DNA of 60,883 nt, counting the filler. It is 5 parts of 5 records of this genome, joined end to end, with 100 filler letters (N's around TTAATTAATTAA, not from the genome) between each part and the next. Parts side by side here need not be neighbours in the genome. Positions count along the whole stretch, not along the records: positions 45,381 to 55,461 come from SRR20825019_3030; 4 more parts are not named here. One strand, given 5' to 3'. The translations under genes and the position numbers were made by a program. The notes under the pieces were generated by a model. That model searched no databases and was not told the origin of the DNA. It worked only from the letters and a program-made list of their open reading frames with translations. Below are positions 3,822 to 55,561 of the stretch, piece by piece. Every line of letters starts with the position of its first letter. Position 1 is the first letter of the stretch.

Positions 3822-4505
3822 ATGGATCACACCCGCACCCTTGCAGACCAGACGCCCAGCCGCGCCGAACTGGAGAACATCTTTTCGCAAGGCCACCGCG
3901 CGTCCCTTGAAAACTGCGATCTGAGCGGGCTGAACCTGTCCGATCTTGACCTATCGGGATCGCAGTTCACGGGCTGCAAACTGGCGCGCACCGCTTTCAA
4001 TGGCACACGGCTTGACGAGGTGCGATTTGCCAATTGCCGCGCGGCTGGGGCCAGTTTTGTCGGGGCCAATCTGCAAGAGGCCACAATTGAGGGCGGGGAT
4101 TTCAGCAACACCAGCTTTCGCGCGGCGACGCTGAATGCAACCAGAATCCTGAACTGCAAGATGACGGGCTCGGACTTCACCGATGCGAAAACGCTGGGCT
4201 TTTCCATCGAGGGCGTTTTGCTGGTGCTTGCGGTCCTGCCGCGCATGTCCTTTCGCAAGATGACCCTGAAAGAGGTGGATTTCACCGACGCCGACCTGCG
4301 GTCCTGTGATTTCCGAGAGGCGGTTTTCGAGGAGTGTTCGCTGCGCGACGCGCATCTGCCGGAGTGCCGGTTCGAAGGGGCAGACCTGCGCGGGGCGGAT
4401 TTGGGCGGGGTCCGGCTGACCGATGCGCGGCTGTTCAAGGGGGCGGTTATTTCCAAGCATCAGGCGGCTGACCTGCTGGGGCAGCTTGGGTTGACGGTTC
4501 TTTAG
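3822..4505 (+). CDS. Pentapeptide repeat protein
   Basis: Nearly continuous A/C-D/N-L/F-x-x repeats (CDLSGLNLSDLDLSG, ADLRGADLGG). Confidence 0.9.
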   Translation: MDHTRTLADQTPSRAELENIFSQGHRASLENCDLSGLNLSDLDLSGSQFTGCKLARTAFNGTRLDEVRFANCRAAGASFVGANLQEATIEGGDFSNTSFRAATLNATRILNCKMTGSDFTDAKTLGFSIEGVLLVLAVLPRMSFRKMTLKEVDFTDADLRSCDFREAVFEECSLRDAHLPECRFEGADLRGADLGGVRLTDARLFKGAVISKHQAADLLGQLGLTVL

Positions 4506-4577
4506 GGTAAGGACCCCTTCCCTTCCCGATCAACGGCTGTCAAACTTTTGGCCGCAACAACAGCCAAGGCGAACACG

Positions 4578-7087: not shown

Positions 7088-7187
7088 NNNNNNNNNNNNN
7101 NNNNNNNNNNNNNNNNNNNNNNNNNNNNNNNTTAATTAATTAANNNNNNNNNNNNNNNNNNNNNNNNNNNNNNNNNNNNNNNNNNNN
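7088..7187. other. Artificial contig linker
   Basis: 100-nt N run with central TTAATTAATTAA. Confidence 0.97.
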
Positions 7188-14465: not shown

Positions 14466-14951
14466 ATGTTTTCCAGGACTATCCGTGCGGCGATTGTAGC
14501 CGCCGGACTTTCATCACTCGCAGCAAGCCCTGCAATGGCGCAGCAATGCGGCGGCCCTCTTTCCGAATTTCTGAATGGCGTCAAACGCGAAGCGGTTCAA
14601 AAGGGCCTTTCGCCAAGTGCTGCCGATGCCGTTCTGGCGGGCGCTTCGATCAGTAATCAGGTTCTGAAAATGGACCGGGCGCAGGGTGTGTTTAAGCAGA
14701 CCTTTCTTGAGTTCTCGCAGCGCACCGCCAGTAATTCCCGCCTTCAGATCGGTGCCAAGAAAATCCAGCAATATGCCAGCACATTCAACCGGGCGAAATC
14801 GCAATATGGCGTACCTGCCGGAGTGCTGACAGCATTCTGGGCCATGGAGACCGACTTCGGCGCCGTTCAGGGTAGCTTCAACACGCGTAACGCGCTTGTA
14901 ACGCTGGCACATGATTGCCGACGTCCGGAAATCTTCCGCCCGCAGCTGATC
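14466..14951 (+). CDS. Lytic murein transglycosylase (MltB family), 3' truncated
   Basis: Signal peptide, FWAMETDFG catalytic motif, TLAHDCRR. Confidence 0.88.
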
Positions 14952-15051
14952 NNNNNNNNNNNNNNNNNNNNNNNNNNNNNNNNNNNNNNNNNNNNTTAAT
15001 TAATTAANNNNNNNNNNNNNNNNNNNNNNNNNNNNNNNNNNNNNNNNNNNN
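14952..15051. other. Artificial contig linker
   Basis: N run with TTAATTAATTAA; abrupt switch from GC-rich to AT-rich sequence. Confidence 0.97.
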
Positions 15052-17905: not shown

Positions 17906-18763
17906 CTATAAAACGTTTAAAGCTTGCTCTTTAATTTTTTCTAACTCGTCTTTCATTTGTACTACAATTTGCTGCATAGGCGCATAATTTGCCTTGCTAC
18001 CAATGGTGTTGATTTCACGTCCAATTTCTTGTGTGATGAAGCCTAATTTTTTTCCGTTAGAATCGTGCGAGCTAAGTGATTGCTCAAAATATTCCAAATG
18101 GTTTTTTAAACGAACCTTTTCTTCGGTGATGTCATATTTTTCAAGATAATAGATCAATTCTTGCTCAAAACGGTTTTCGTCTACTTTTTCTTTTAAATCT
18201 GAAACAGCTTTTCGAAGACGTTCTTTAACAGCATCTATACGTTCTGGGTCTATTGCAATTACTTCATCCAGCAATTTTGAAATGGTTTTGGTACGTGCTA
18301 TAAAATCATTTTCGAGCACCAAACCTTCATCGGTTCTGTAGGTATTGATTGCTTCAAGTGCTTTGTTTAATCCTTTTAAAATTGCTTCATATTCCTTTTC
18401 ATCAATTTCCTCACGCTCTGTTTTTAAAGCATCTGGCATTCGAACTGCCATTTTTAAAAGCTCCACAGGATCACCGTTCACCACATTTGCCAACTGTTCA
18501 ATATATTTTTTTACGGTAGCCTCATTAAGCTGGGTGCTAACCTCTTCGCCAGTTACTTCTATATAAAGTGAAAGATCCACTTTTCCTCTTTGTAATGATT
18601 TTGCTAATAAATCACGAATTTCTAGTTCCTTTTCTCGATATGTGGAAGGTACGCGGGTGTTAAGGTCAAGCCCTTTACTGTTTAGCGATTTAACTTCAAT
18701 AGTTATTGTTTTGGATGGCAATTGAACAACTTCTTTGCCGTATCCGGTCATGGATTGGATCAT
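17906..18763 (-). CDS. yicC: YicC/YloC family endoribonuclease
   Basis: MIQSMTGYG, DITEEKVRL, QEIGREINTIGSKA. Confidence 0.92.
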   Translation of the reverse strand: MIQSMTGYGKEVVQLPSKTITIEVKSLNSKGLDLNTRVPSTYREKELEIRDLLAKSLQRGKVDLSLYIEVTGEEVSTQLNEATVKKYIEQLANVVNGDPVELLKMAVRMPDALKTEREEIDEKEYEAILKGLNKALEAINTYRTDEGLVLENDFIARTKTISKLLDEVIAIDPERIDAVKERLRKAVSDLKEKVDENRFEQELIYYLEKYDITEEKVRLKNHLEYFEQSLSSHDSNGKKLGFITQEIGREINTIGSKANYAPMQQIVVQMKDELEKIKEQALNVL

Positions 18764-45280: not shown

Positions 45281-45380
45281 NNNNNNNNNNNNNNNNNNNN
45301 NNNNNNNNNNNNNNNNNNNNNNNNTTAATTAATTAANNNNNNNNNNNNNNNNNNNNNNNNNNNNNNNNNNNNNNNNNNNN
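45281..45380. other. Artificial contig linker
   Basis: N run with TTAATTAATTAA. Confidence 0.97.
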
Positions 45381-46286
45381 TTCGCCGTACCCAATTAATG
45401 CAACAGTCCCGTCTCGACTTAGGTTGAAACCTACCTCATTCATGACGAAGGCTCCCTCGGCTCGAGGAAAATCATCGACATTCAGTCCGCGTCTTGCTTG
45501 ACGCACGGCTGCTACGTCGTTGATGCCACCGCTTGCGAGGTTGGAGACCATCTCCACATGGCCATCGTCGGTTCCGAACCTGGTGGACCTGGTTTCGACA
45601 TCCCCGTCGCTTGCTGACTTGACGGCGCGGCTCAAAGAGATGCGTGCGGTTCGGACAGAGCAGATTCCCAGTGCAGTAACTTCCTGCCACACTTGGTCGA
45701 TTGCGTTACTGTGATCGATTTCCTTACTACGGTGGATCAGTATGGCTACGAACGGGTCAGCGAAGCGCCATTCAAAACGTACCGTACTGCGATCAAGTCG
45801 CTGGCGGTAAGCTTCGTATTTGTATACCTCCAACCCTTCTTGCTGTGGGCTGATGTCTTTTGCACGAATACGGTTCCAACCTTCTTTTCCTTGCTGCCAA
45901 GCAAGCGAGATACCCTCTTCGCCCAGTTCGATGTTCGATAGCTGAAGTTCGTCGGGAAACTCGTAGCCAAACCCTTGCTCAATCAACGGAGAAAACTCAC
46001 TTTGCGAGATCGCTTCCTTTGCATCTCCCCGTGTGATTTCGGGGGGCTCGAATAGATAGAGATGTTGGTTACCCCATCCTTCGACCTGCTTAAGCCAAGC
46101 TTCGATCATCTCCCGAGTAAGGAGATCCTCGTCGATGGCGTTGGTTATGTTGGTCAGGAAGTCCTTTTTCGTGGAACCAATGGGAAGGCTGTTCTCCCTC
46201 AATAGCTCTTTGATATATTGGTTGCCTTGAATCAGCAGAATCTCTTCAACTTGCGTTTTTAAAAGTGCTTTGTCTTCTGCCGTCAT
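45381..46286 (-). CDS. Hypothetical protein, probable transposon cargo (3' truncated)
   Basis: >300-aa open frame, visibly lower GC than the neighbouring tns genes; no recognised family. Confidence 0.7.
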
Positions 46287-46747
46287 TACTAAAATCCGCT
46301 TAGTATTAATAGGAAAGACCATAACATAGCACAGCCCCAACGAGAAATCGTGTCTTTCTCCACAACTATTTGAACTTTACCTGTGGCCAGCGCCGATACC
46401 TAGTTCTTAGCGATGTTTGGCTAGGTTCCAGACTCATTGATTTTCACAGCCAGAACAAAACTATTGCGGCGAGGATGATGTAGGGGTTTTGTTGCACAAA
46501 TTAGCCGATGGCCGTGGCTCCCCTTTTCCCGGGCGGACTTAAACACATTCCTGCCGGACATTGAAACTCTCATAGCCACCACAGAATTTGCCGTCATTCT
46601 TATAAGGAATGCCAGATCCTATAATGTTGTCAAACACTTACCTCGCACTCATCGTCGAATAGTTATTGACCTAAGTGCGACGGACGTGATTCGATGTAGT
46701 CGTGGGTATGGTCCATATTTGGTATCTTCCACATGGAGGACCGCAAA

Positions 46748-46969
46748 ATGCTCGATCAGAACCGCCACAAGGAAATCAAGCGTCGACTACGCGAATGTGG
46801 CACTTCGATCACGCAAATCGCCCGTGATATCGGCAAGGATCAGAGTACGGTGACGATCGTCAGCCAAGGCCATCGTAAGTCCGATCCCATTCAGCGGGCG
46901 ATCGCGGAGCGGCTCGGCACAACCGCCGAAGCCCTTTTCCCCGAACGGTACAAGGAGGAAAGCGGATGA
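46748..46969 (+). CDS. Ner/SfsB-like HTH regulator
   Basis: IKRRLRECGTSITQIAR...IAERLGTTAEALFPERY; GGAGGA RBS. Confidence 0.8.
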   Translation: MLDQNRHKEIKRRLRECGTSITQIARDIGKDQSTVTIVSQGHRKSDPIQRAIAERLGTTAEALFPERYKEESG

Positions 46970-47199
46970 ATTAGATAGCCCAAAAACAAGAGAACTCCAA
47001 CAAGCATAGCCTGCCAGAGTCCTGATGTCGTATCGATTGGTACCCGATAGCTTCATCTTCCCTCACACGGCAGAAAAGTCAAGTCCGGTGGCGAGTGACC
47101 GCCCTCGGAAGTCGTGTTCAAATGAGATGAAAGGGGACCGCCTCCCCCGGTCAGTCGCGCGCTACGCATGGCACAGGGGGAGGTGTGTCCGATTAAGAA

Positions 47200-47886
47200 A
47201 TGAACCAACAAACACACACATTCCGTCCCCCTCACCCTTCGAGAGGCCTTCGCAAAATATCCTTTCGGTCCCGTGGTAGTTGCCGCACGTCGTCTGCGTG
47301 CTCAATGCCGAGCGTCGACGGTTTGATCACGGTCGACTGCGAAAGCAGGCTGGAGGACCGGACACGTTCGATCCTGCTTGCGCAACCCGGTCTTCATGAT
47401 CTGCGGGAGCAGTATCCACGCGTCGAGTATCACGGCAACGATGGCGTCCGCCGGTGGCACACGTTCGATTTCATGGCCACGTACCAAACGGGTCGCCGTA
47501 TCGCTATCGCCGTCAAACCAAAGAAGCTATCGGATCGGCGGCGGTTCTTCGAGGAACTCGTGGACGTTGAGGCTGCGCTACCTCGCCGCGTGGCCGACGA
47601 GGTAAGGCTCGTCACCGACGACGACATCGACCGCACCGAGGCGACGAATGCCGCCCGCTACCTTCATTTCGCGCGCGATACCGACCCGGAGGCGGATGCG
47701 TGGCTGACCGAACGTCTCCGGCGGGCGGACGGCCAACTCTCGGTGTCGGACCTGATCAACGAAAGCGACATGGGTGGGCGCATGTTCCGCGCAGTGTTCC
47801 GTGCGATTTACGTCGGACACCTTCGTGCCGATCGCCGCTCTCCGATCACGGTCGCAAGCGTCGTTTTCCGGGAGTCTGTCCAATGA
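47200..47886 (+). CDS. TnsA-like endonuclease-fold protein
   Basis: ESRLE, EQYP..Y, HTFDF, AVKP and a C-terminal wHTH-like region; coupled to tnsB. Confidence 0.7.
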   Translation: MNQQTHTFRPPHPSRGLRKISFRSRGSCRTSSACSMPSVDGLITVDCESRLEDRTRSILLAQPGLHDLREQYPRVEYHGNDGVRRWHTFDFMATYQTGRRIAIAVKPKKLSDRRRFFEELVDVEAALPRRVADEVRLVTDDDIDRTEATNAARYLHFARDTDPEADAWLTERLRRADGQLSVSDLINESDMGGRMFRAVFRAIYVGHLRADRRSPITVASVVFRESVQ

Positions 47887-50054
47887 CCATCCGCATGAAA
47901 TTTGCCGAGACGGACCGTCTTCTCATACACGGCACGGCTTACAGGGTCGCCGACCACGACGAATACAGCCTCACCGTGTTCCAACACGATAACCCCGGCA
48001 TAACCGAGACCATCGCGTTCGAGGAGATGTCGCGCCTTCTCCGCACACGAACGGCCCATCTTCAACGAGGGTTTTACGATCGGGCTTCCCGGAGCGCATC
48101 TTCGAATGATTTCGAGGGTTTGAACGACCTTCCGGCTGATGTGCAGAGCGAAGTTCTCTGGCGGCACCGTTGGTGTACCCTGCTCGACGAACGGCGCAAG
48201 CGAGGTGCCCTAGTTCTGACCCGGAACTCGATCCGACAGGCAATAACAGATCTCGTACCGCAGATCATCGAAATGGAAACCGCCGCACAGCGCGGAGCCC
48301 GGAAAAGACGGTCCGCTTCGAAAATCGAACTTCACGATCTCCCCAAACCATCCACTCTCCTCGAATGGTACCGGAATTATCGCGATGGCGCGCGTACGAT
48401 CATGGCTCTCGTCCCTGAATTGTATCGATCCGGCAATCGAACACGTCGCTTCAGCTTGGCCACGGAGGCATTCGTCAGCAAGAGCATCGAGGACTACGCT
48501 TGTCCACTGCGGCCCTCCAAGGCACAAGTCGTGGAAAGGACGATGCTTCGGATCAAAGAAGAGAACCGTTGCCGCACGGACGCCGGAGAATTGCCTCTCG
48601 ACCTTATGTCCGGTCGAACGATACGTCGTCGCCTGGATGGCCTCGATCCCTATCATACCTACGCGCAGCGGTTCGGCCCCGCTGCCGCCAACAGAAAGTT
48701 TAACATCAGTGAAAACGGCGACAAAGCGCTCTTCCCGATGGAGGTTCTCGAAACGGACTCGTGGAAGATTGATCTCATCACCTTGTTCGCGCGCAGCGGT
48801 ATCCTGGAAGGGCTAAACCCCGAGATGCGCGCGCGGCTCGAAAAGGGCCGACGATGGATCACGGTCGCGATCGACAAGGCCACGCGTGTCGTGGTCGCGT
48901 TCCGCATCGTCGACGCACCCTCGGCAGCGAGTTCGGTCGCCGTCATCGCGGACGCGACTCGAGACAAATCACATATCGCGCGAGCCATGGGCTGCGAAAA
49001 TCCGTGGCCCTTCCACGGGGGGCTAAACGTCGTCAGCGCCGACATGGGCCCCGAGAATAACAACGAGACCTTCCGCGCTGCCATCCACTCGGCGGGCGGA
49101 AACGTCATCTACGGGCCCGCGAGTCAGCCGCAGCTCAGGGGTATGGTCGAGAGCCTATTCCGCACCTTCGGACAGAAGCTCATGCCACTTCTCCACGCTC
49201 GCACGCATTCAAACCCCGTCGAGAAAGGCGACTATGACGCCGAGCGATACGCCAGTCTCGCCGATGACGAACTGACGCGGATAGTCACGAGGTACATCGT
49301 CGACATATATCACCAGCAAGGACACGAGGGGCTCGGAGGGGAAACGCCTGCGCACTGCTGGAAGCGCCTGAGTAATCTCTACGGCGTCACTCCGCCACCA
49401 GACGGACATGTCCGGCGGGCCGCATTCGGCATCCCAAACAACCGTATAATTGTTGGCGGCAACATTAAAGTTGTAGGGATAGAGTACACGTCCGATGCGG
49501 TTCGAAATCAATTTCTGCATGGTCACGATAGCAACGTCGATGTCCGCATGGATCCGCAGGACTTGGGCTGGATCACCGTTCGGATCGACCGGAAATGGCA
49601 CGCCGCCGAAGCTGTTCCCGAAGGGTTTCATGGTCGTTCTCTGGACGAGTGGATCGACACCTGTACAGCGCTGCGCCAGAAGCATCGACGTGATGCCGCG
49701 ATCCATGAAGACTCCATCCGCCGCGCATTCGACGGGATAGAAACGATCCAGAGGGACGCGCTTCTGAGGATGGAATTGACACCGAGCCGTATGTCAGCAG
49801 AGGCGCTACATCGCCTCGAAGGGGAATTGTTCCTCGGGCTGAACATCACGACGGAGGCCAAGCAGGGCGGTTCCGACGGATCGAGATTGATCGTCTCTCG
49901 CAATCGTCAAGAGGGACCGGACGAGGACGATTCGTCCGACATCGGGATCGGCAAGCCGGTTCGTCCGAACACCGACGGATCAGGGGGCAGTGCTGTGCCC
50001 GAGGACGATCATGAAGCCGACGGGCACTCGCCCTGGACACTGGAGGACGAATGA
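47883..50054 (+). CDS. TnsB/Mu-like DDE transposase
   Basis: LETDSW, AIDKATR, ADMGPE, RGMVESLF (D-D-E), YH..H.GL..TP, and C-terminal Mu-type domain (VRMDPQDLGWI). Confidence 0.9.
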   Translation: MTIRMKFAETDRLLIHGTAYRVADHDEYSLTVFQHDNPGITETIAFEEMSRLLRTRTAHLQRGFYDRASRSASSNDFEGLNDLPADVQSEVLWRHRWCTLLDERRKRGALVLTRNSIRQAITDLVPQIIEMETAAQRGARKRRSASKIELHDLPKPSTLLEWYRNYRDGARTIMALVPELYRSGNRTRRFSLATEAFVSKSIEDYACPLRPSKAQVVERTMLRIKEENRCRTDAGELPLDLMSGRTIRRRLDGLDPYHTYAQRFGPAAANRKFNISENGDKALFPMEVLETDSWKIDLITLFARSGILEGLNPEMRARLEKGRRWITVAIDKATRVVVAFRIVDAPSAASSVAVIADATRDKSHIARAMGCENPWPFHGGLNVVSADMGPENNNETFRAAIHSAGGNVIYGPASQPQLRGMVESLFRTFGQKLMPLLHARTHSNPVEKGDYDAERYASLADDELTRIVTRYIVDIYHQQGHEGLGGETPAHCWKRLSNLYGVTPPPDGHVRRAAFGIPNNRIIVGGNIKVVGIEYTSDAVRNQFLHGHDSNVDVRMDPQDLGWITVRIDRKWHAAEAVPEGFHGRSLDEWIDTCTALRQKHRRDAAIHEDSIRRAFDGIETIQRDALLRMELTPSRMSAEALHRLEGELFLGLNITTEAKQGGSDGSRLIVSRNRQEGPDEDDSSDIGIGKPVRPNTDGSGGSAVPEDDHEADGHSPWTLEDE

Positions 50055-51004
50055 TGTCCGAGGCTCTTCTGCAATTGGTCGGCGAGCAAATCGCCGACCT
50101 TCAGGCCCACTTCGTGCGGCACGAGCGGTTCCGACAGCTCGACGAGGTTTTCCGGCTCCTCAAACACAGGCGGCAGGCCGACCTTCGCGCTGGTCGATCC
50201 CGCGAGCTGCGTGGGATCGCCGTCATAGGTGCATCGGGAAGCGGCAAGACCACCGCCGTGGATAGACTTCTGCGAAACGCATCGAAAGACGGAGACACCG
50301 GCGACCATTGGGAAATCATCAGCCTGCGCGTTCCCTCGCCTGCCACGGTGAAATTCGTCGGGCAGACAATCCTTCGGGGGCTCGGCTATCCCGTCAACGG
50401 TCGGCGGGAGGCATGGTACGTCTGGAACCTCGTTCGTCACCACCTGCGGGAACGGCAAACACTCTTCCTCCATCTCGACGAAGCGCAGGACCTTGCGGCA
50501 CGGGGCACCGAACGCGAACGCCAGTCCGTCGTGAACCTTCTGAAATCCCTAATGCAGGACCCCGACTGGCCGGTCTGCCTCATTCTCTCTGGGACCGGCG
50601 AGCTTGCGGACATCCTGAATTTCGACCCGCAACTCGGCAGGCGGTTTCAGCCGATCCGGTTCGACCCCGTTAACGAGATCTCCGATCTGGGCAAGGTCCG
50701 CGACCTGCTTTCCGCGTATGTCGCCAAGACCTCTCTATCCGCCGACGACGGGATCGAGACGAACGAGTTCGCAGCCCGTCTCGTCCATGCTGCCGCCAAT
50801 GAGTTCGGCCTGATCATTGAGATCACAATCGCCGCCATCGAGGTAGCGTTTCTCAGGCAGGGGGCATCGCTGACGGTCGCGGATTTCGCCGGTGCGTTTC
50901 GGCGGCGGACGGGCTGCATCGACGGGCTCAATCCGTTCGTCGCGCAGAATTTCCGTCGGATCGACCCGCGCGAGCTGTTGGCTGACGAGGGACGGATCGC
51001 ATGA
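50051..51004 (+). CDS. TnsC/TniB AAA+ ATPase
   Basis: GASGSGKT Walker A, LHLDEAQ Walker B, QLGRRF arginine finger. Confidence 0.9.
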   Translation: MMSEALLQLVGEQIADLQAHFVRHERFRQLDEVFRLLKHRRQADLRAGRSRELRGIAVIGASGSGKTTAVDRLLRNASKDGDTGDHWEIISLRVPSPATVKFVGQTILRGLGYPVNGRREAWYVWNLVRHHLRERQTLFLHLDEAQDLAARGTERERQSVVNLLKSLMQDPDWPVCLILSGTGELADILNFDPQLGRRFQPIRFDPVNEISDLGKVRDLLSAYVAKTSLSADDGIETNEFAARLVHAAANEFGLIIEITIAAIEVAFLRQGASLTVADFAGAFRRRTGCIDGLNPFVAQNFRRIDPRELLADEGRIA

Positions 51005-52827
51005 CGGACATCAAGCCCCCGTCTCCGCTCTCCGTTCCGAGCCACGACGATGAGACATTCATGTCGCTCGTGTCCCGCATCGCGGCCCGGAACGGCGCTG
51101 CCGACCTCTCAGATTTCAGAAAAGACATTGGCGTCCGTCAGGAAGACATGTTTCGGGCTGATCCGGAAGCATTGGCGGAACTCGCGCTCGGTGCTGGTAT
51201 ACCCGATCATCCGTCTCTCCGGCGAACGCCCGTTGCGTTCGATGGCGGTCGCTTCGCTTACGGAAAAGCGATCCTGACGTCGAGAGATCTCGCCCGGTTT
51301 CACGTTCGCATTTGCCAGAAGTGCATCAACGGCGACCGGCGCCGCGATTCCGTACTCGGCCCCTATCAACGGATCGAATGGCTTCTCGCGGATGTCCACA
51401 CGTGCCACGAGCACAATTGCCTTCTGATTGATGTCACGGACACTGTGGGCTCGTGCGGCAGATTGGACTTTCACCTCGCGATCCAAAATGCTGATCTGCG
51501 AGCCTTTCCGCGGCTCGGCGACCGAGTCACGCCCCAGCATCGCGGCCTCGAAAACTACCTCATCGGACGGGTCGGGGGCGCTCGGGCATCCGCGTTTCTG
51601 GACGGGCTGGAGTACCGGGTCGTCGCAGCGACCTCTACTGCGCTCGGGTGCTTGATCCGGTCGGGTCCGAAGGCGAAACTCGACGACTTGTCCCAGCGGG
51701 AGATCCGTTCAGCAGGACACTACGGCTTTCAGGTCCTCAGCGAAGGCACGGCGTCGTTTCGGGAAGCTCTCGAAAGGATCCGTATGTCGAAGCCCGTAGC
51801 GGCGGCCAAGCACCGCAAACGTTTTGGAGGGTTCTTCGACTGGCTTCGGAACAAGGAAGACCCGGCATTCAATCCGATCAAGGATATAGTCCGTGAGTAT
51901 ATCCTCGACACGTTTCCGGTGCCGGAAGGAATGGAGGTGCTCGGTGTGGAATGCGGCGAGCAGCGTCGTCACACGCTCGCGACCGGGGCGCGAATGATCG
52001 ATATGAATCGTGCACGCCTGGGCCATCGTCTCGTTGAGCGTGGGTTGGCTTCAGTCAAACCCGGTAGACCTATTCCGGTTCTCCTTGACTACATCCCCGT
52101 CGATGTTCTGGAACAAATGAAGAAAGACGAGGCGACCGATTACGACCTCGACGAAGTCTGCGAGCTGTTCGGAGTGCATCGCAACATCGCCGGGCGTTTG
52201 GCGAGGGCTGGTTTTCTCGGAACGCGTTCGTTCGAGGATACCGGCACCTATAGATTCGAGCGAGACGACGTATGGAAGCTAAAGTATCGGCTTTTCGGCA
52301 CGGTTGCGACGCGCTCGCTCGGAACCGACACTCACCTGCCGCTTTTCGATGCGGCCCGTCAATTCCGCCTGCCGATCGAAGCCCTGATCCATTATTGCTG
52401 CAACGAAACGTTGAAGCTGAAGCATCCTCCATCGTCGCGACGCTTGTTAACCGACCTTCTCGTTCCCATCGACGAGTTGAAAAGGCACATCGAGCCGAAG
52501 CGCTCGGAGGGGCTTTTGCATAAGGACGCCGCCAAGACCCTGCATGTTGATCGGCAGACTATCTCCGAGTTGGTCGCTGCTGGTAAGCTGGTCGAGAAGT
52601 CCATCCACATTCCATATGCGGACCACAGCATACGCTACATCACGGTCGAATCGTTGCGTGCTTTTCGCGCAGACTATATTTCACTCGCCAACTTGGCTTT
52701 AAGCATCGACCGCGAACCTGGCCCTTACGCACAGTATCTGGCGGCACGCGGCATTCGGCCGTGCGTCGATATCGCGTCAAGTTCCCGCATCTACAAGCGC
52801 ACGGACTTTCGTCGCAAGAAAGACTGA
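51001..52827 (+). CDS. TniQ/TnsD family target selector with C-terminal HTH repeats
   Basis: DETFMSLVSRIAARNG, zinc motif CQKC...CHEH, then repeated HTH-like segments. Confidence 0.85.
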   Translation: MTDIKPPSPLSVPSHDDETFMSLVSRIAARNGAADLSDFRKDIGVRQEDMFRADPEALAELALGAGIPDHPSLRRTPVAFDGGRFAYGKAILTSRDLARFHVRICQKCINGDRRRDSVLGPYQRIEWLLADVHTCHEHNCLLIDVTDTVGSCGRLDFHLAIQNADLRAFPRLGDRVTPQHRGLENYLIGRVGGARASAFLDGLEYRVVAATSTALGCLIRSGPKAKLDDLSQREIRSAGHYGFQVLSEGTASFREALERIRMSKPVAAAKHRKRFGGFFDWLRNKEDPAFNPIKDIVREYILDTFPVPEGMEVLGVECGEQRRHTLATGARMIDMNRARLGHRLVERGLASVKPGRPIPVLLDYIPVDVLEQMKKDEATDYDLDEVCELFGVHRNIAGRLARAGFLGTRSFEDTGTYRFERDDVWKLKYRLFGTVATRSLGTDTHLPLFDAARQFRLPIEALIHYCCNETLKLKHPPSSRRLLTDLLVPIDELKRHIEPKRSEGLLHKDAAKTLHVDRQTISELVAAGKLVEKSIHIPYADHSIRYITVESLRAFRADYISLANLALSIDREPGPYAQYLAARGIRPCVDIASSSRIYKRTDFRRKKD

Positions 52828-52846
52828 TTTATTTATCCTTAGGATG

Positions 52847-52873
52847 GGGCCGACCTTCGGGGCGGTCCTTTTT
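52847..52873 (+). terminator. Terminator after tniQ
   Basis: GGGCCGACC-TTCG-GGGCGGTCC stem plus TTTTT. Confidence 0.75.
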
Positions 52874-52892
52874 CGTCGACCTAGTTGCGGAC

Positions 52893-53006
52893 GAGTCGGT
52901 GCCTTTTTGGCAAAGAGTCGGGATTGCGTGATACATCCGCCAGAACAGTATCGGAAAACCAGTGTCTATTCGTTTTTCTGAATCGGATACTTTGTGGCAC
53001 GTATCA
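52893..53006. repeat. Putative transposon end with four degenerate TnsB-binding sites
   Basis: GAGTCGGTGCCTTTTTGGCA (52893), GAGTCGGGATTGCGTGATAC (52915), GTATCGGAAAACCAGTGTCT (52948), GAATCGGATACTTTGTGGCA (52980), then CGTATCA. Confidence 0.6.
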
Positions 53007-53201
53007 TCCCCCAGTCGGGAGGATTTCCAGCACACTCCCAGGTAAAGACATCAACTGGCGGTCGTCCTATGGACGTAACCCGCTAGCGGCAGCGATTTGG
53101 CCCCGCATTGATCCGCTCTCTTGGTATCAAAAGCATACCTATGGGCGGTGCAGGCCAACCAGAACGCACTGCGCGTCATACCGTTCGCTTTGCGACGACC
53201 C

Positions 53202-53615
53202 CTACTCCTGAATGCTCTCCAGATAGGCCAGCAACCCCGCCAGCACGCGCGGTGTTGGTGTCAGCACGCCGTCGATCTCCACCGGCACCAGATCCTGTGC
53301 CATTGCGCCGCCAAACTCCGGCATGACGCGGGCAAGGTGGGACTGTTCGGGATCGCCATAGATATAGCTCAGCGCTCGCGCGGACGGGAACGTGCCGCCG
53401 TTGTGACGGCTCAGCGTGGTCAGATTGGCAGGCCTGGCTTGCAGCCCGTCGACAAAGGCGCCGTTGCCCCGCCCCCGAGCGCCATGACACGCCACGCAAT
53501 TGTCGGCAAAGAACGCCGCCCCGTCCGTCCGGTCGGGCATGACAGGATCGGTACAGGCCACAAGCCCTGCCGCCACCAAGGCCAGACTGACGGTGATCGA
53601 AAAGAAACTGCGCAT
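53202..53615 (-). CDS. c-type cytochrome lipoprotein
   Basis: Lipobox LVAC, CVACH haem motif, MPEFG axial Met. Confidence 0.9.
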   Translation of the reverse strand: MRSFFSITVSLALVAAGLVACTDPVMPDRTDGAAFFADNCVACHGARGRGNGAFVDGLQARPANLTTLSRHNGGTFPSARALSYIYGDPEQSHLARVMPEFGGAMAQDLVPVEIDGVLTPTPRVLAGLLAYLESIQE

Positions 53616-53717
53616 AGGACCCTCATTCCATAGTTCCCGCACAGTTTCGCGCGCGGCCCATCCCGCCGCCATGATCCACATCAAGTTGCCCGCAAATACC
53701 CCCTTGCAGGCAGCGCC

Positions 53718-55064
53718 TCAGCCCTTACCCTTCCACGGCACCAGAATCCGTTCGGCCCAGCGCATCAGCATGTCGATGCCAAAACCGATGATGCCGATCA
53801 AGATGATCCCCATCAACACGATGTCGGTGTCCTGAAACTTGGACGCCGCCACGATCATCTTGCCCACGCCCTTTTCCGCCGCCACCAGTTCGGCGGCCAC
53901 AACCGTGCCCCAGCATACGCCCATCGCCACGCGCGCGGCGGTGAAAATCTCGGGCAGGGAGTTGGGGATGATCACATGGCGCAGGATCTGCCACTTGCTG
54001 GCCCCCAGCGAATAGGCCGCGTGCACCTTGGTGATCTTCACCCCGGACACACCCGACCGTGCACCGATCGCCATGATCCACAGCGCGGCCAGGAACAGCA
54101 GGATGATCTTGCCCTGTTCACCAATGCCCGCCCAGATGATCACCAGCGGGATCAATGCCAGTGGCGGCACCGGGCGCATGAATTCGACAATCGGATCGAA
54201 CCAGCCGCGAAACCAGTTCGACAGGCCCATGGCATAGCCCAGCGGAATGCCCACGAGCGCGCCCAGCGCAAAGCCCACGATGACACGGAACAGCGAATAG
54301 CTGAGGTGTTCGGCCAGCGTCACGTTCTGATAGCCGTCCGCGCTGACCGACACCAACCGACGCCAGACGCTGTCAGGGGCCGGCAACCAGATGCTTTCCA
54401 TCTGCCAGCCCTGCCCCGGTTCGAAATTCAGCGTGCCCTTGTCCGTCAGCGCCACGCGACCAAAGCCGACATCGACATCTGTCGTGACATCAATCGCCCG
54501 ACCATCCACGGCGACAACCTTCGCGCCGTCCTTGCGCGTTACATCGTCGTTGGCGTCCCAGCTGATCAGCTTTGACCGATAGGCCTGCACCTCGACACTG
54601 TCGTTTTTCACGGGGCCCATGCCTGCGTCAAATTCGAGCGGCGCGGGTTCCTCACCCTGCCGGTAGACGGACACGAAAACGGTGGCATCGGCCTGCGTCC
54701 CGTCCTGTCGTTCGATTGTATAGGTGAACTTGTCCTGCCCGACAAAGGGTCCGGGCGCGTGCAATGGTCCCGGCAACCAACCCGATCCGGTGAACGCGCC
54801 CCAGATCACAAAGATCAGCACGATGGAAATCACCGACGCCGCCTTGTCCGAGACAACCGCGCTTTCGTCGCCGAATGTCACGGTTTTCAACGAGCGATAG
54901 TCGCGTACACGCCCCATTTGCGCGCGGATGAAATTCCAGATGACCATCGAAAGCAGGATCAGTGCCAGATAGCCGAGGATAAATGGGAACGCCCCCAGCA
55001 CGGAGAGGAACAATTGCGCCAGTTCGCCGCCGAGGTCTTGGAAAATCTGCAACATCTCAGACAC
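53718..55064 (-). CDS. ABC transporter permease, TauC/SsuC type, with an inserted soluble domain
   Basis: [27 protein letters not shown]. Confidence 0.85.
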
Positions 55065-55461
55065 TTTCCTCGCTGCGGCCCATGATCTCTTCTTCCATGT
55101 TCCAGATCATGTTCAGGATTTCCTCGCGGGTGGGCGCATAGTCGGGATGTTTCTTGACCTCGCGCAGGTCCGCGCCCACGCCCAGATCGGCAAAGGGCAG
55201 GCGGTATTCCTTGTGAATACGCCCCGGACGCGGCGCCATCACCACCAGACGCTCGCCCAGCAACAGCGCCTCTTCGACCGAGTGGGTGATCAGGATGATG
55301 GTCTTGCCCGTCTCCTTCCACAGCTTCAGCACCAGGCTTTGCATCTTTTCGCGGGTCAGCGCGTCCAGCGCGCCCAGCGGTTCGTCCATCAGGATCACAT
55401 CTGGGTCGTTGGCCAGACAGCGGGCCAGCGCCACGCGCTGTTGCATCCCGCCCGACAGTTC
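55057..55461 (-). CDS. ABC transporter ATP-binding protein, TauB type (5' truncated)
   Basis: [35 protein letters not shown]. Confidence 0.88.
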
Positions 55462-55561
55462 NNNNNNNNNNNNNNNNNNNNNNNNNNNNNNNNNNNNNNN
55501 NNNNNTTAATTAATTAANNNNNNNNNNNNNNNNNNNNNNNNNNNNNNNNNNNNNNNNNNNN
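55462..55561. other. Artificial contig linker
   Basis: N run with TTAATTAATTAA. Confidence 0.97.

Follow-up and report, generated by a model that had tools for sequence, protein, structure and literature searches.

A five-gene transposition module in a 60,883-nucleotide stretch of DNA, filler included (hereafter the window), raises the question of what kind of mobile element it belongs to, where that element inserts, and which limits of the module are ends of the element. The module (46548-53006) encodes a small Ner-type helix-turn-helix (HTH) protein followed by TnsA, TnsB, TnsC and TniQ, and lies on the fourth of the contigs joined in the window (45381-55461; 10,081 bp). It is highly likely, on the evidence below, that 46548-53006 is the intact module together with the left end of a cut-and-paste Tn7-like transposon of the TnsA-plus-TnsB type, which is specific for the tRNA-Ala(GGC) gene and carries its cargo upstream of ner.

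The transposition module and its left end

The module and its borders comprise the following features, by coordinates and strand.

46548-46732, plus strand: left edge of the module and region upstream of ner; identity of 97.4% to locus L001 begins sharply at 46548
46748-46969 (alternative start 46733), plus strand: ner, gene for a Ner-type small HTH repressor (HTH_35, PHROG 769)
47031-47049, no strand: inverted repeat TATCG-N9-CGATA in the ner-tnsA spacer, candidate operator
47075-47083, no strand: AAAAGTCAA box in the ner-tnsA spacer, candidate promoter
47200-47886, plus strand: tnsA, TnsA-type endonuclease (Pfam Tn7_TnsA-like_N and profile alignment)
47883-50054, plus strand: tnsB, DDE transposase (catalytic triad and profile matches)
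50051-51004, plus strand: tnsC, TniB-type AAA+ regulator (Pfam TniB)
51001-52827, plus strand: tniQ, TnsD-like target selector of 608 aa (TniQ core and C-terminal winged-helix modules)
approximately 52846-52873, plus strand: terminator-like stem-loop and T5, 3' of tniQ; also in L001, with base changes
52894-52912, minus strand: inner TnsB-site-like repeat, 87 bp from the terminal repeat
52981-53006, minus strand: terminal TnsB-site-like repeat (52981-52999) and terminus ...GTATCA, the left end by convention
53007-53011, no strand: TCCCC, expected right copy of the 5-bp target duplication (empty-site comparison)

All the hallmarks of a Tn7-like transposition machinery, namely a TnsB triad, a TnsC/TniB protein beside TnsB, a TniQ selector and the E, D and K of TnsA, were found. 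Residues D292, D387 and E423 of TnsB are invariant across 28 sequences, and the TnsB family profile, compared with solved structures, matched PseCAST TnsAB (E = 1.8e-62), Tn6677 TnsB (1.7e-52), ShCAST TnsB (2.4e-29) and Tn7 TnsB (1.2e-13). TnsC matched Pfam TniB (4.5e-23), with VchTnsC (3.4e-3) as the sole solved relative found. When a 16-sequence profile of TnsA was aligned with Tn7 TnsA (1f1z; E = 0.002), E52, D90 and K106 fell opposite the E, D and K of the 1f1z motifs SDLE, TDF and QVKP, which we take to be the catalytic residues of Tn7 TnsA. TniQ contains the Pfam domains TniQ (1.7e-13) and HTH_17 (1.5e-8), the former present in 19/19 family members scanned. An AlphaFold (AF2) model of TniQ built from 19 sequences (predicted local distance difference test score, 84.7) was matched by Foldseek to TniQ chains of CRISPR-associated transposons (CASTs) of type I-F3 over ~420 columns, with a best E value of 3.2e-5, and its C-terminal repeated strand-helix-helix units gave weak matches, at E > 0.1, to Xis, BldC and MerR-type winged helices. 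Searched as single sequences, TniQ and TnsA matched no solved structure.

The Ner-type open reading frame (ORF) matched Pfam HTH_35 (3.3e-10) and PHROG 769, a 'transcriptional repressor' (1.2e-12); against the solved Mu Ner chain, the protein gave no match at E values up to 1. Its start at 46748 is better than that at 46733 because GGAGG is located 8 nt upstream and relatives align from residue 6. A preliminary description of this locus had proposed this start for a ner-like HTH gene, followed by tnsA-like, tnsB, tnsC and tniQ genes joined by ATGA overlaps. Both proposals were borne out, as the four tns frames are all open and direct reading places the overlaps that join tnsA-tnsB-tnsC-tniQ at 47883, 50051 and 51001. 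Likewise, the tnsE gene, cas genes and resolvase that had been described as not visible were absent by Pfam and NCBIfam among the contig ORFs scanned, no search for a CRISPR array having been made. An additional frame at 47025-47279 was rejected as a gene, given that it matches its near-identical copy only and has no family match.

In three Paracoccus elements (L015, L016 and L030), the shared sequence stops within the 3' end of tniQ, around 14554-14616, and TniQ is shorter, about 400-500 aa. This suggests that the C-terminal target-binding regions of TniQ have been swapped in these elements.

The spacer between ner and tnsA was aligned for 11 elements, i.e., the window, L003, L005-L007, L010, L015, L016, L030, L033 and L038. 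All three repeat pairs were kept in 11/11, with changes on both sides in four rows at one pair and in one row at another. Because the RNAalifold consensus of the spacer is weak (-3.23 kcal/mol), the inverted repeat is read as a putative site for a protein rather than as RNA; the spacer motifs are possibly an operator, a promoter and a leader. The repeat arms change together between elements (ATCG/CGAT, GTCG/CGAC, GTAG/CTAC and ACCG/CGGT), and the inverted repeat is followed on its 3' side by a conserved AAAGTCAA box and then a variable hairpin.

The limits of the module were defined by comparison with its closest relative. TnsB has its nearest relative in Pseudosulfitobacter pseudonitzschiae (98% identity), with the locus in strain DSM 26824 (genome G006) being L001; the window and L001 are 97.4% identical over 46548-53008 only, with both limits sharp and flanks unrelated. 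The terminus lies at 53006 (...GTATCA, with the final A at 53006), 179 bp past the tniQ stop, and in related elements all ends finish with ...CA at the position equal to window 53006. Judged from these alignments, 53006 is a genuine element terminus, the left end by convention. The end hallmarks present in the window itself are this terminus, ...TCA, and the two repeats 87 bp apart, a spacing common to four elements (window, G006, G001 and G004); inverted partners of the repeats occur in relatives only, and the partner of the terminal repeat adjoins tRNA-Ala in DSM 26824. The probable end near tniQ in the preliminary description thus acquired an exact position. The terminator placed there by the same description stands as a stem-loop with T5, but this folds no better than shuffled sequence (z = 0.09) and was not among the predictions of a terminator scan. 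At the opposite side, no end-type repeat was found between 46548 and ner, and 46548 is read as the putative junction of the conserved module with variable cargo, not as a transposon end. When a partner of the terminal 29 bp was sought with 16-mers, one match with three mismatches was returned, at 46494; it is not in the DSM 26824 copy and was taken as chance.

Insertion beside tRNA-Ala(GGC) and the cargo

The target site of the window's copy was read from empty sites in related genomes. The window's right flank directly follows tRNA-Ala(GGC) without an element in three relatives of DSM 26824, at 97%, 93% and 91% identity, and was found at 89-97% identity in four related genomes; because it follows this tRNA gene at empty sites, the window element occupies the tRNA-Ala(GGC) site. 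The junction in the window reads ...GTATCA/TCCCCCAGTCGGGAGG (slash at the terminus), and the closest empty site, G013:C7, reads CCA-TCCCC-TCCCC-CAGTCGGGAGG, such that the TCCCC at 53007-53011 equals bases +6 to +10 past the CCA of tRNA-Ala(GGC). The flank fits the same insertion orientation as in the tRNA-Ala relatives.

Relatives were collected by a locus scan from a 10-sequence alignment, with one genome per species, which gave 38 loci. All 38 are colinear in the genes found (tnsA in 33, tnsC in 34, tniQ in 30, and ner, upstream of tnsA, in 17), and tnsA-tnsB-tnsC-tniQ is complete in 28. Every named related locus belongs to the Alphaproteobacteria, and the clade occurs in Rhodobacterales and a few Hyphomicrobiales. 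Partner ends were located by whole-genome pattern searches just outside the 10-kb locus flanks; inside these flanks, the 20-mer end motif had no inverted copy at seven loci. Six elements have an end or end-like sequence at tRNA-Ala(GGC), given here with the 5-mers bordering the two ends.

G001, Paracoccus cavernae: end adjoins tRNA-Ala(GGC); ACATG/ACATG
G037a, Ruegeria metagenome-assembled genome (MAG): end adjoins tRNA-Ala(GGC); CCAAC/CCAAC
G002, Paenirhodobacter MAG: end adjoins tRNA-Ala(GGC); TCATT/TCATG
G006, DSM 26824: end adjoins tRNA-Ala(GGC); TCTTT/TCTTG
G005, Pseudodonghicola MAG: end-like sequence at tRNA-Ala(GGC); 5-mers do not match
G045, Paracoccaceae MAG: end-like sequence at tRNA-Ala(GGC); 5-mers do not match

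The 5-bp duplication is perfect in two of these elements, agrees at 4/5 bases in two and is unmatched in two. In 6/6, the tRNA-side end is located 9-10 bp past the CCA of tRNA-Ala(GGC) and the tns operon is directed away from the tRNA, i.e., in a single orientation. The elements are about 16-23 kb long, and the two ends of that in G001 begin TGGCAAGTGCCAGATAG... and TGGACAGTGCCAGATAG... The preliminary description had called the element site-specific and alphaproteobacterial and had asked for a comparison with empty-site genomes; the first is supported by the tRNA-Ala(GGC) flank in the window and by the ends beside tRNA-Ala(GGC) in the six relatives, the second agrees with the named loci, and the comparison yielded a tRNA-Ala(GGC) site joined to the window's right flank and empty in three related genomes. 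Its statement that the operon reads outward to the end is right as a description, but the machine is not reversed relative to the target.

The insertion point in three genera is located within an inverted repeat, a terminator-like hairpin, 3' of tRNA-Ala(GGC) (L039, about 2090-2110 and 18096-18120; L040; and L046, an empty site), and insertion therefore parts the tRNA from the second hairpin arm. Upstream of three other elements, tRNA-Pro(CGG) and tRNA-Arg(ACG) were considered as attachment sites and rejected, with no matching end. Large plasmids and chromids in Rhodobacterales and Rhizobiales also bear more remote TnsB relatives (27-36% identity), e.g., L087 on the Phaeobacter inhibens plasmid pP78_a.

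In DSM 26824, the same right flank as in the window is preceded by a second family member, 35-47% identical, and the 97% identical copy abuts end-like sequence of another element. On the simplest reading of these sequences, two family members would form a tandem array at one tRNA-Ala gene, spread over contigs that are not joined. The pieces of the array are G006:C22 1-25085 and G006:C13 139163-152900 (L001, L041 and L045). Past the tRNA-proximal copy come another end-like sequence and a gene for a C-5 cytosine methylase; the second tns module lies on another contig, directly against the host flank.

Between the tRNA-side end and ner, the elements of G001, G002, G005, G037a and G006 contain about 10-17 kb of cargo. 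Its gene content was scanned in two of them, G001 and DSM 26824, both of which have defence genes: that of G001 is made up of restriction genes only, for an Mrr nuclease and a type I restriction-modification system, and that of DSM 26824 encodes an IS6-family transposase, a resolvase and an ABC-3C/PDC-M68 candidate defence system, the resolvase lying beside the IS6-family transposase gene and outside the transposition module. The remainder of the window's own contig holds the following.

45381-45413, no strand: putative insertion sequence (IS) end at the contig edge, 33/33 identical to L001 4573-4605 (blastn)
45414-46340, minus strand: sole visible cargo gene, conserved hypothetical family, ~332 aa
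53012-55461, no strand: host flank, running to the contig end
53202-53684, minus strand: cytochrome c-like ORF in the host flank
53718-55064, minus strand: ABC permease in the host flank

The cargo ORF had no match in Pfam, NCBIfam or PADLOC, and at its 3' end the frame continues without a stop codon into the IS end and contig edge. Its 52 homologues include Sulfitobacter-type records at 88-89% identity and proteins of Rhizobium, Dokdonella, Pseudomonas and Sphingomonas at 40-53%, a patchy spread as expected of an accessory gene. The 33-bp match at the contig edge lies, in L001, after a gene for an IS6-family transposase (3828-4547; DDE_Tnp_IS240, E = 1.8e-48), and 45381-45413 is probably an IS end and the cause of the contig break. 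An IS6-type element is found in the cargo of both copies, at a distance to ner of 1.1 kb in the window and about 4 kb in DSM 26824. An Rfam search of the contig gave no match at E <= 0.1.

The claim of cargo upstream of the operon, made in the preliminary description, holds in relatives with both ends, but the upstream DNA taken for cargo in the window belongs to another contig. Four identical 100-nt blocks of N44-TTAATTAATTAA-N44 were found at 7088-7187, 14952-15051, 45281-45380 and 55462-55561 by an inverted-repeat search of the whole window, which found these alone, and by direct reading. They are artificial joiners, and the window consists of five contigs in arbitrary order; neighbourhood across joiners therefore carries no meaning, and only 45381-46547 is physically upstream of the module on its own contig. 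The separate contig 15052-45280 (30 kb; 31-39% GC, ~34% overall, among contigs of ~60% GC) encodes GpsA, two glutamate dehydrogenases, PntB, DsbD and a sigma-54 activator, as well as the type IX secretion protein PorZ and a class I aminoacyl-tRNA synthetase. It is a Bacteroidota-like chromosome fragment from another organism, not transposon cargo, and probably represents assembly or bin contamination. Stretches assembled from joined contigs can thus mimic 'cargo'.

Mechanism and alternative explanations

In the mechanism that we propose, TniQ, with its type I-F3-like core and tandem Xis/MerR-type winged helices, would read the tRNA-Ala(GGC) gene through its C-terminal winged helices and recruit the small TniB-like TnsC; TnsC would then recruit TnsA and TnsB bound on the two paired ends. 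Cut-and-paste insertion would follow 5-10 bp beyond the tRNA 3' end, with the end upstream of the tns genes always placed towards the tRNA. The Ner-type protein would repress the tns promoter, probably via the conserved inverted repeat in the ner-tnsA spacer.

Several observations weigh against an intact tRNA-Ala(GGC)-specific transposon of this kind. Searched as a single sequence, TnsA matched Pfam Tn7_TnsA-like_N at 5.8e-5, which is under the curated cut-off. The end-repeat pattern gave three matches at <=3 mismatches when 2.5 are expected per window, and, being derived from the two window sites themselves, its matches prove nothing alone. The contig does not include the tRNA-side end of the window's copy, for which no duplication is hence visible; among the relatives, the duplications of G002 and G006 are imperfect (4/5) and G005 and G045 have none. 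The element of G045 looks decayed, with an in-frame TAG in its tnsB (G045:C1 267799-269530). A search reaching up to 45 kb upstream, which recovered two positive controls, gave no partner end for eight more distant elements, and the layout is therefore shown for the tRNA-Ala subgroup only. Lastly, the binding of TniQ to the tRNA gene and repression by Ner are steps that we infer.

The alternative that deserves most attention, though we regard it as unlikely, concerns the window's copy alone and is compatible with our description of the family: this copy may be an immobilised remnant, from which an IS6-mediated rearrangement took the tRNA-side end and most of the cargo. The contig indeed breaks off 1.1 kb upstream of the module in 33 bp of IS6-type terminal sequence, its single cargo ORF enters the contig edge without a stop codon, and a second end-type repeat was found nowhere in the window. 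However, short-read assemblies are expected to break at a repeated IS, which is uninformative on the DNA beyond; moreover, the five ORFs are all open, and the 97.4% identical copy at a different array position in another genome points to recent movement. It is improbable that the target is chosen not by TniQ reading the tRNA gene but via the hairpin downstream of the tRNA or the end of a resident element in a tandem array. This would account for the insertion point within an inverted repeat after the tRNA in three genera, and for the tniQ-side end abutting end-like sequence of another element in DSM 26824 and G005. Yet the hairpin sequences differ between genera, whereas the tRNA gene and the distance of 9-10 bp are constant; empty sites have no resident element, and Tn7-type elements avoid targets already bearing their own ends, which also counts against array targeting.

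A standard Tn7 layout, with the right end just upstream of ner, 53006 as no more than the point where module meets cargo, and the element continuing rightward, has very little chance of being correct. Homology to DSM 26824 also has a sharp limit 185 bp upstream of ner, and 185 bp before the first gene is a distance typical of a Tn7-type right end, but no end-type repeats are present between 46548 and ner. The sole inverted partners in G001 and G037a, bordered by matching 5-bp duplications, instead adjoin the tRNA 16-22 kb upstream, and rightward of 53006 lies host DNA, which at three empty sites comes immediately after tRNA-Ala. Virtually no weight falls on the reading of the module as what remains of a Mu-like transposable prophage (ner, A, B): a Ner-type gene does precede a Mu-type DDE transposase and an AAA+ protein, but the module includes TnsA and TniQ, which are conserved as partners throughout the family, the contig is without a phage gene, and insertion is specific to one tRNA site.

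Relation to known systems and significance

At glmS, the right end of Tn7 faces the target gene. In the present family, the tRNA-side end is a right end that faces the target, the right end being by convention the one upstream of the transposition genes (passages of PMC11406308), and polarity relative to Tn7 is therefore conserved. Set head-on against the prototypic Tn7 layout, the element does not match, with 179 bp from the tniQ stop to the end and cargo ahead of ner; the two layouts differ solely in the cargo, which here is placed between right end and tns operon. The family resembles Tn7 in its heteromeric TnsA/TnsB transposase with aligned E/D/K of TnsA, in its AAA+ TnsC, in a fixed orientation, seen here in relatives, and, in two of these, in a perfect 5-bp duplication. 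Tn7 TnsD is presented, in passages of PMC11406308, as a TniQ-domain selector whose C-terminal DNA-binding region reads a conserved gene, with insertion just outside it, and the TniQ described here is likewise a TniQ-domain selector with a predicted C-terminal DNA-binding region. Unlike Tn7, the family has a distant TnsB (1.2e-13 to that of Tn7), no TnsE among the ORFs scanned, and a tniQ that abuts the left end, and its target is tRNA-Ala(GGC), with insertion 5-10 bp past the gene.

The type I-F3 CASTs (Tn6677/VchCAST and Tn7016/PseCAST) provide the nearest solved relatives of TnsB, TnsC (VchTnsC) and the TniQ core, and they too have tnsA and tnsB as separate genes. A small HTH regulator is also common to both, those of I-F3 elements being given as Xre-family proteins in passages of PMC11406308. 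In contrast to these elements, the present one carries its cargo upstream of the tns operon, and the CAST hallmark of Cas proteins was missing from its visible part in the window (no Cas match in Pfam or NCBIfam among the contig ORFs scanned, which included no search for CRISPR arrays). As its 608-aa TniQ has C-terminal DNA-binding modules of its own, by prediction, targeting would be protein-guided and not RNA-guided as in I-F3. The cyanobacterial I-B2 and I-D CASTs (CyCAST and McCAST), compared by description, share a protein-guided TniQ/TnsD selector, and passages of PMC10293859 and PMC9881144 describe their TnsD homing as directed downstream of a tRNA gene. These differ from the present family in their fused TnsAB, their cas genes and their phylum, and CyCAST homing, according to a passage of PMC10293859, lands 30-33 nt past the tRNA versus 5-10 bp here. 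Tn5053/Tn402 (TniA, TniB, TniQ and TniR) has in common with the family a TniB-type ATPase and a TniQ-domain protein, whereas TnsA is present here and the module contains no resolvase or res site. Tn5053 targets a res site, in contrast to the tRNA site here. The early region of phage Mu (ner, A and B) is similar in that a Ner-type HTH_35 gene heads an operon for a Mu-type DDE transposase and an AAA+ protein; here, TnsA and TniQ are added, no phage genes are on the contig and insertion is site-specific, whereas Mu-like phages have ner-A-B joined to late phage genes and insert nearly at random.

Targeting of tRNA genes by Tn7-like elements is already well known, as passages of PMC10293859, PMC8649781 and PMC9881144 make plain. 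In a literature search, no paper pairing a Tn7-like element with tRNA-Ala was found; among the matches listed, judged by title or the start of the abstract, none concerned a Rhodobacter-type Tn7-like element of such kind, and, by title, none of those listed for Tn7, TniQ and Ner together was relevant. For cargo upstream of tnsA in Tn7-like elements, the matches listed were all on Vibrio or CAST systems. The supplements of PMC8649781 (Table S1), a large survey covering 6,549 elements, and of PMC10293859 may already list the clade. We therefore put forward only tentatively that the family is an undescribed Tn7-like branch, sister to the I-F3 CAST machinery, in which a protein selector for tRNA-Ala(GGC) would direct insertion 5-10 bp away and the cargo would be flanked by the right end and a tns promoter under Ner control, with the left end 179 bp past the tniQ stop. 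The distinct family of the preliminary description is likewise a candidate, and nearness to I-F3 is judged from profile scores against solved structures, in which I-F3 CAST TnsB proteins rank first.

For a Tn7-like clade common in marine Rhodobacterales, the analysis adds an attachment site, exact ends and a consistent orientation, and it accounts for the tRNA-Ala(GGC) island, including the two family members apparently stacked at one site in one strain. Tn7-type elements can carry cargo ahead of the transposition operon. If the tentative proposal above is true, the Tn7 machinery would be bound neither to the sequence 'right end, tns genes, cargo, left end' nor to inserting ~25-60 bp away from the site that it recognises, and marine Rhodobacterales would have a compact site-specific integration system of their own. 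With type I-F3 CAST proteins, which serve in genome engineering, as its closest solved relatives, the element is a candidate protein-guided, orientation-specific integration system for alphaproteobacteria.

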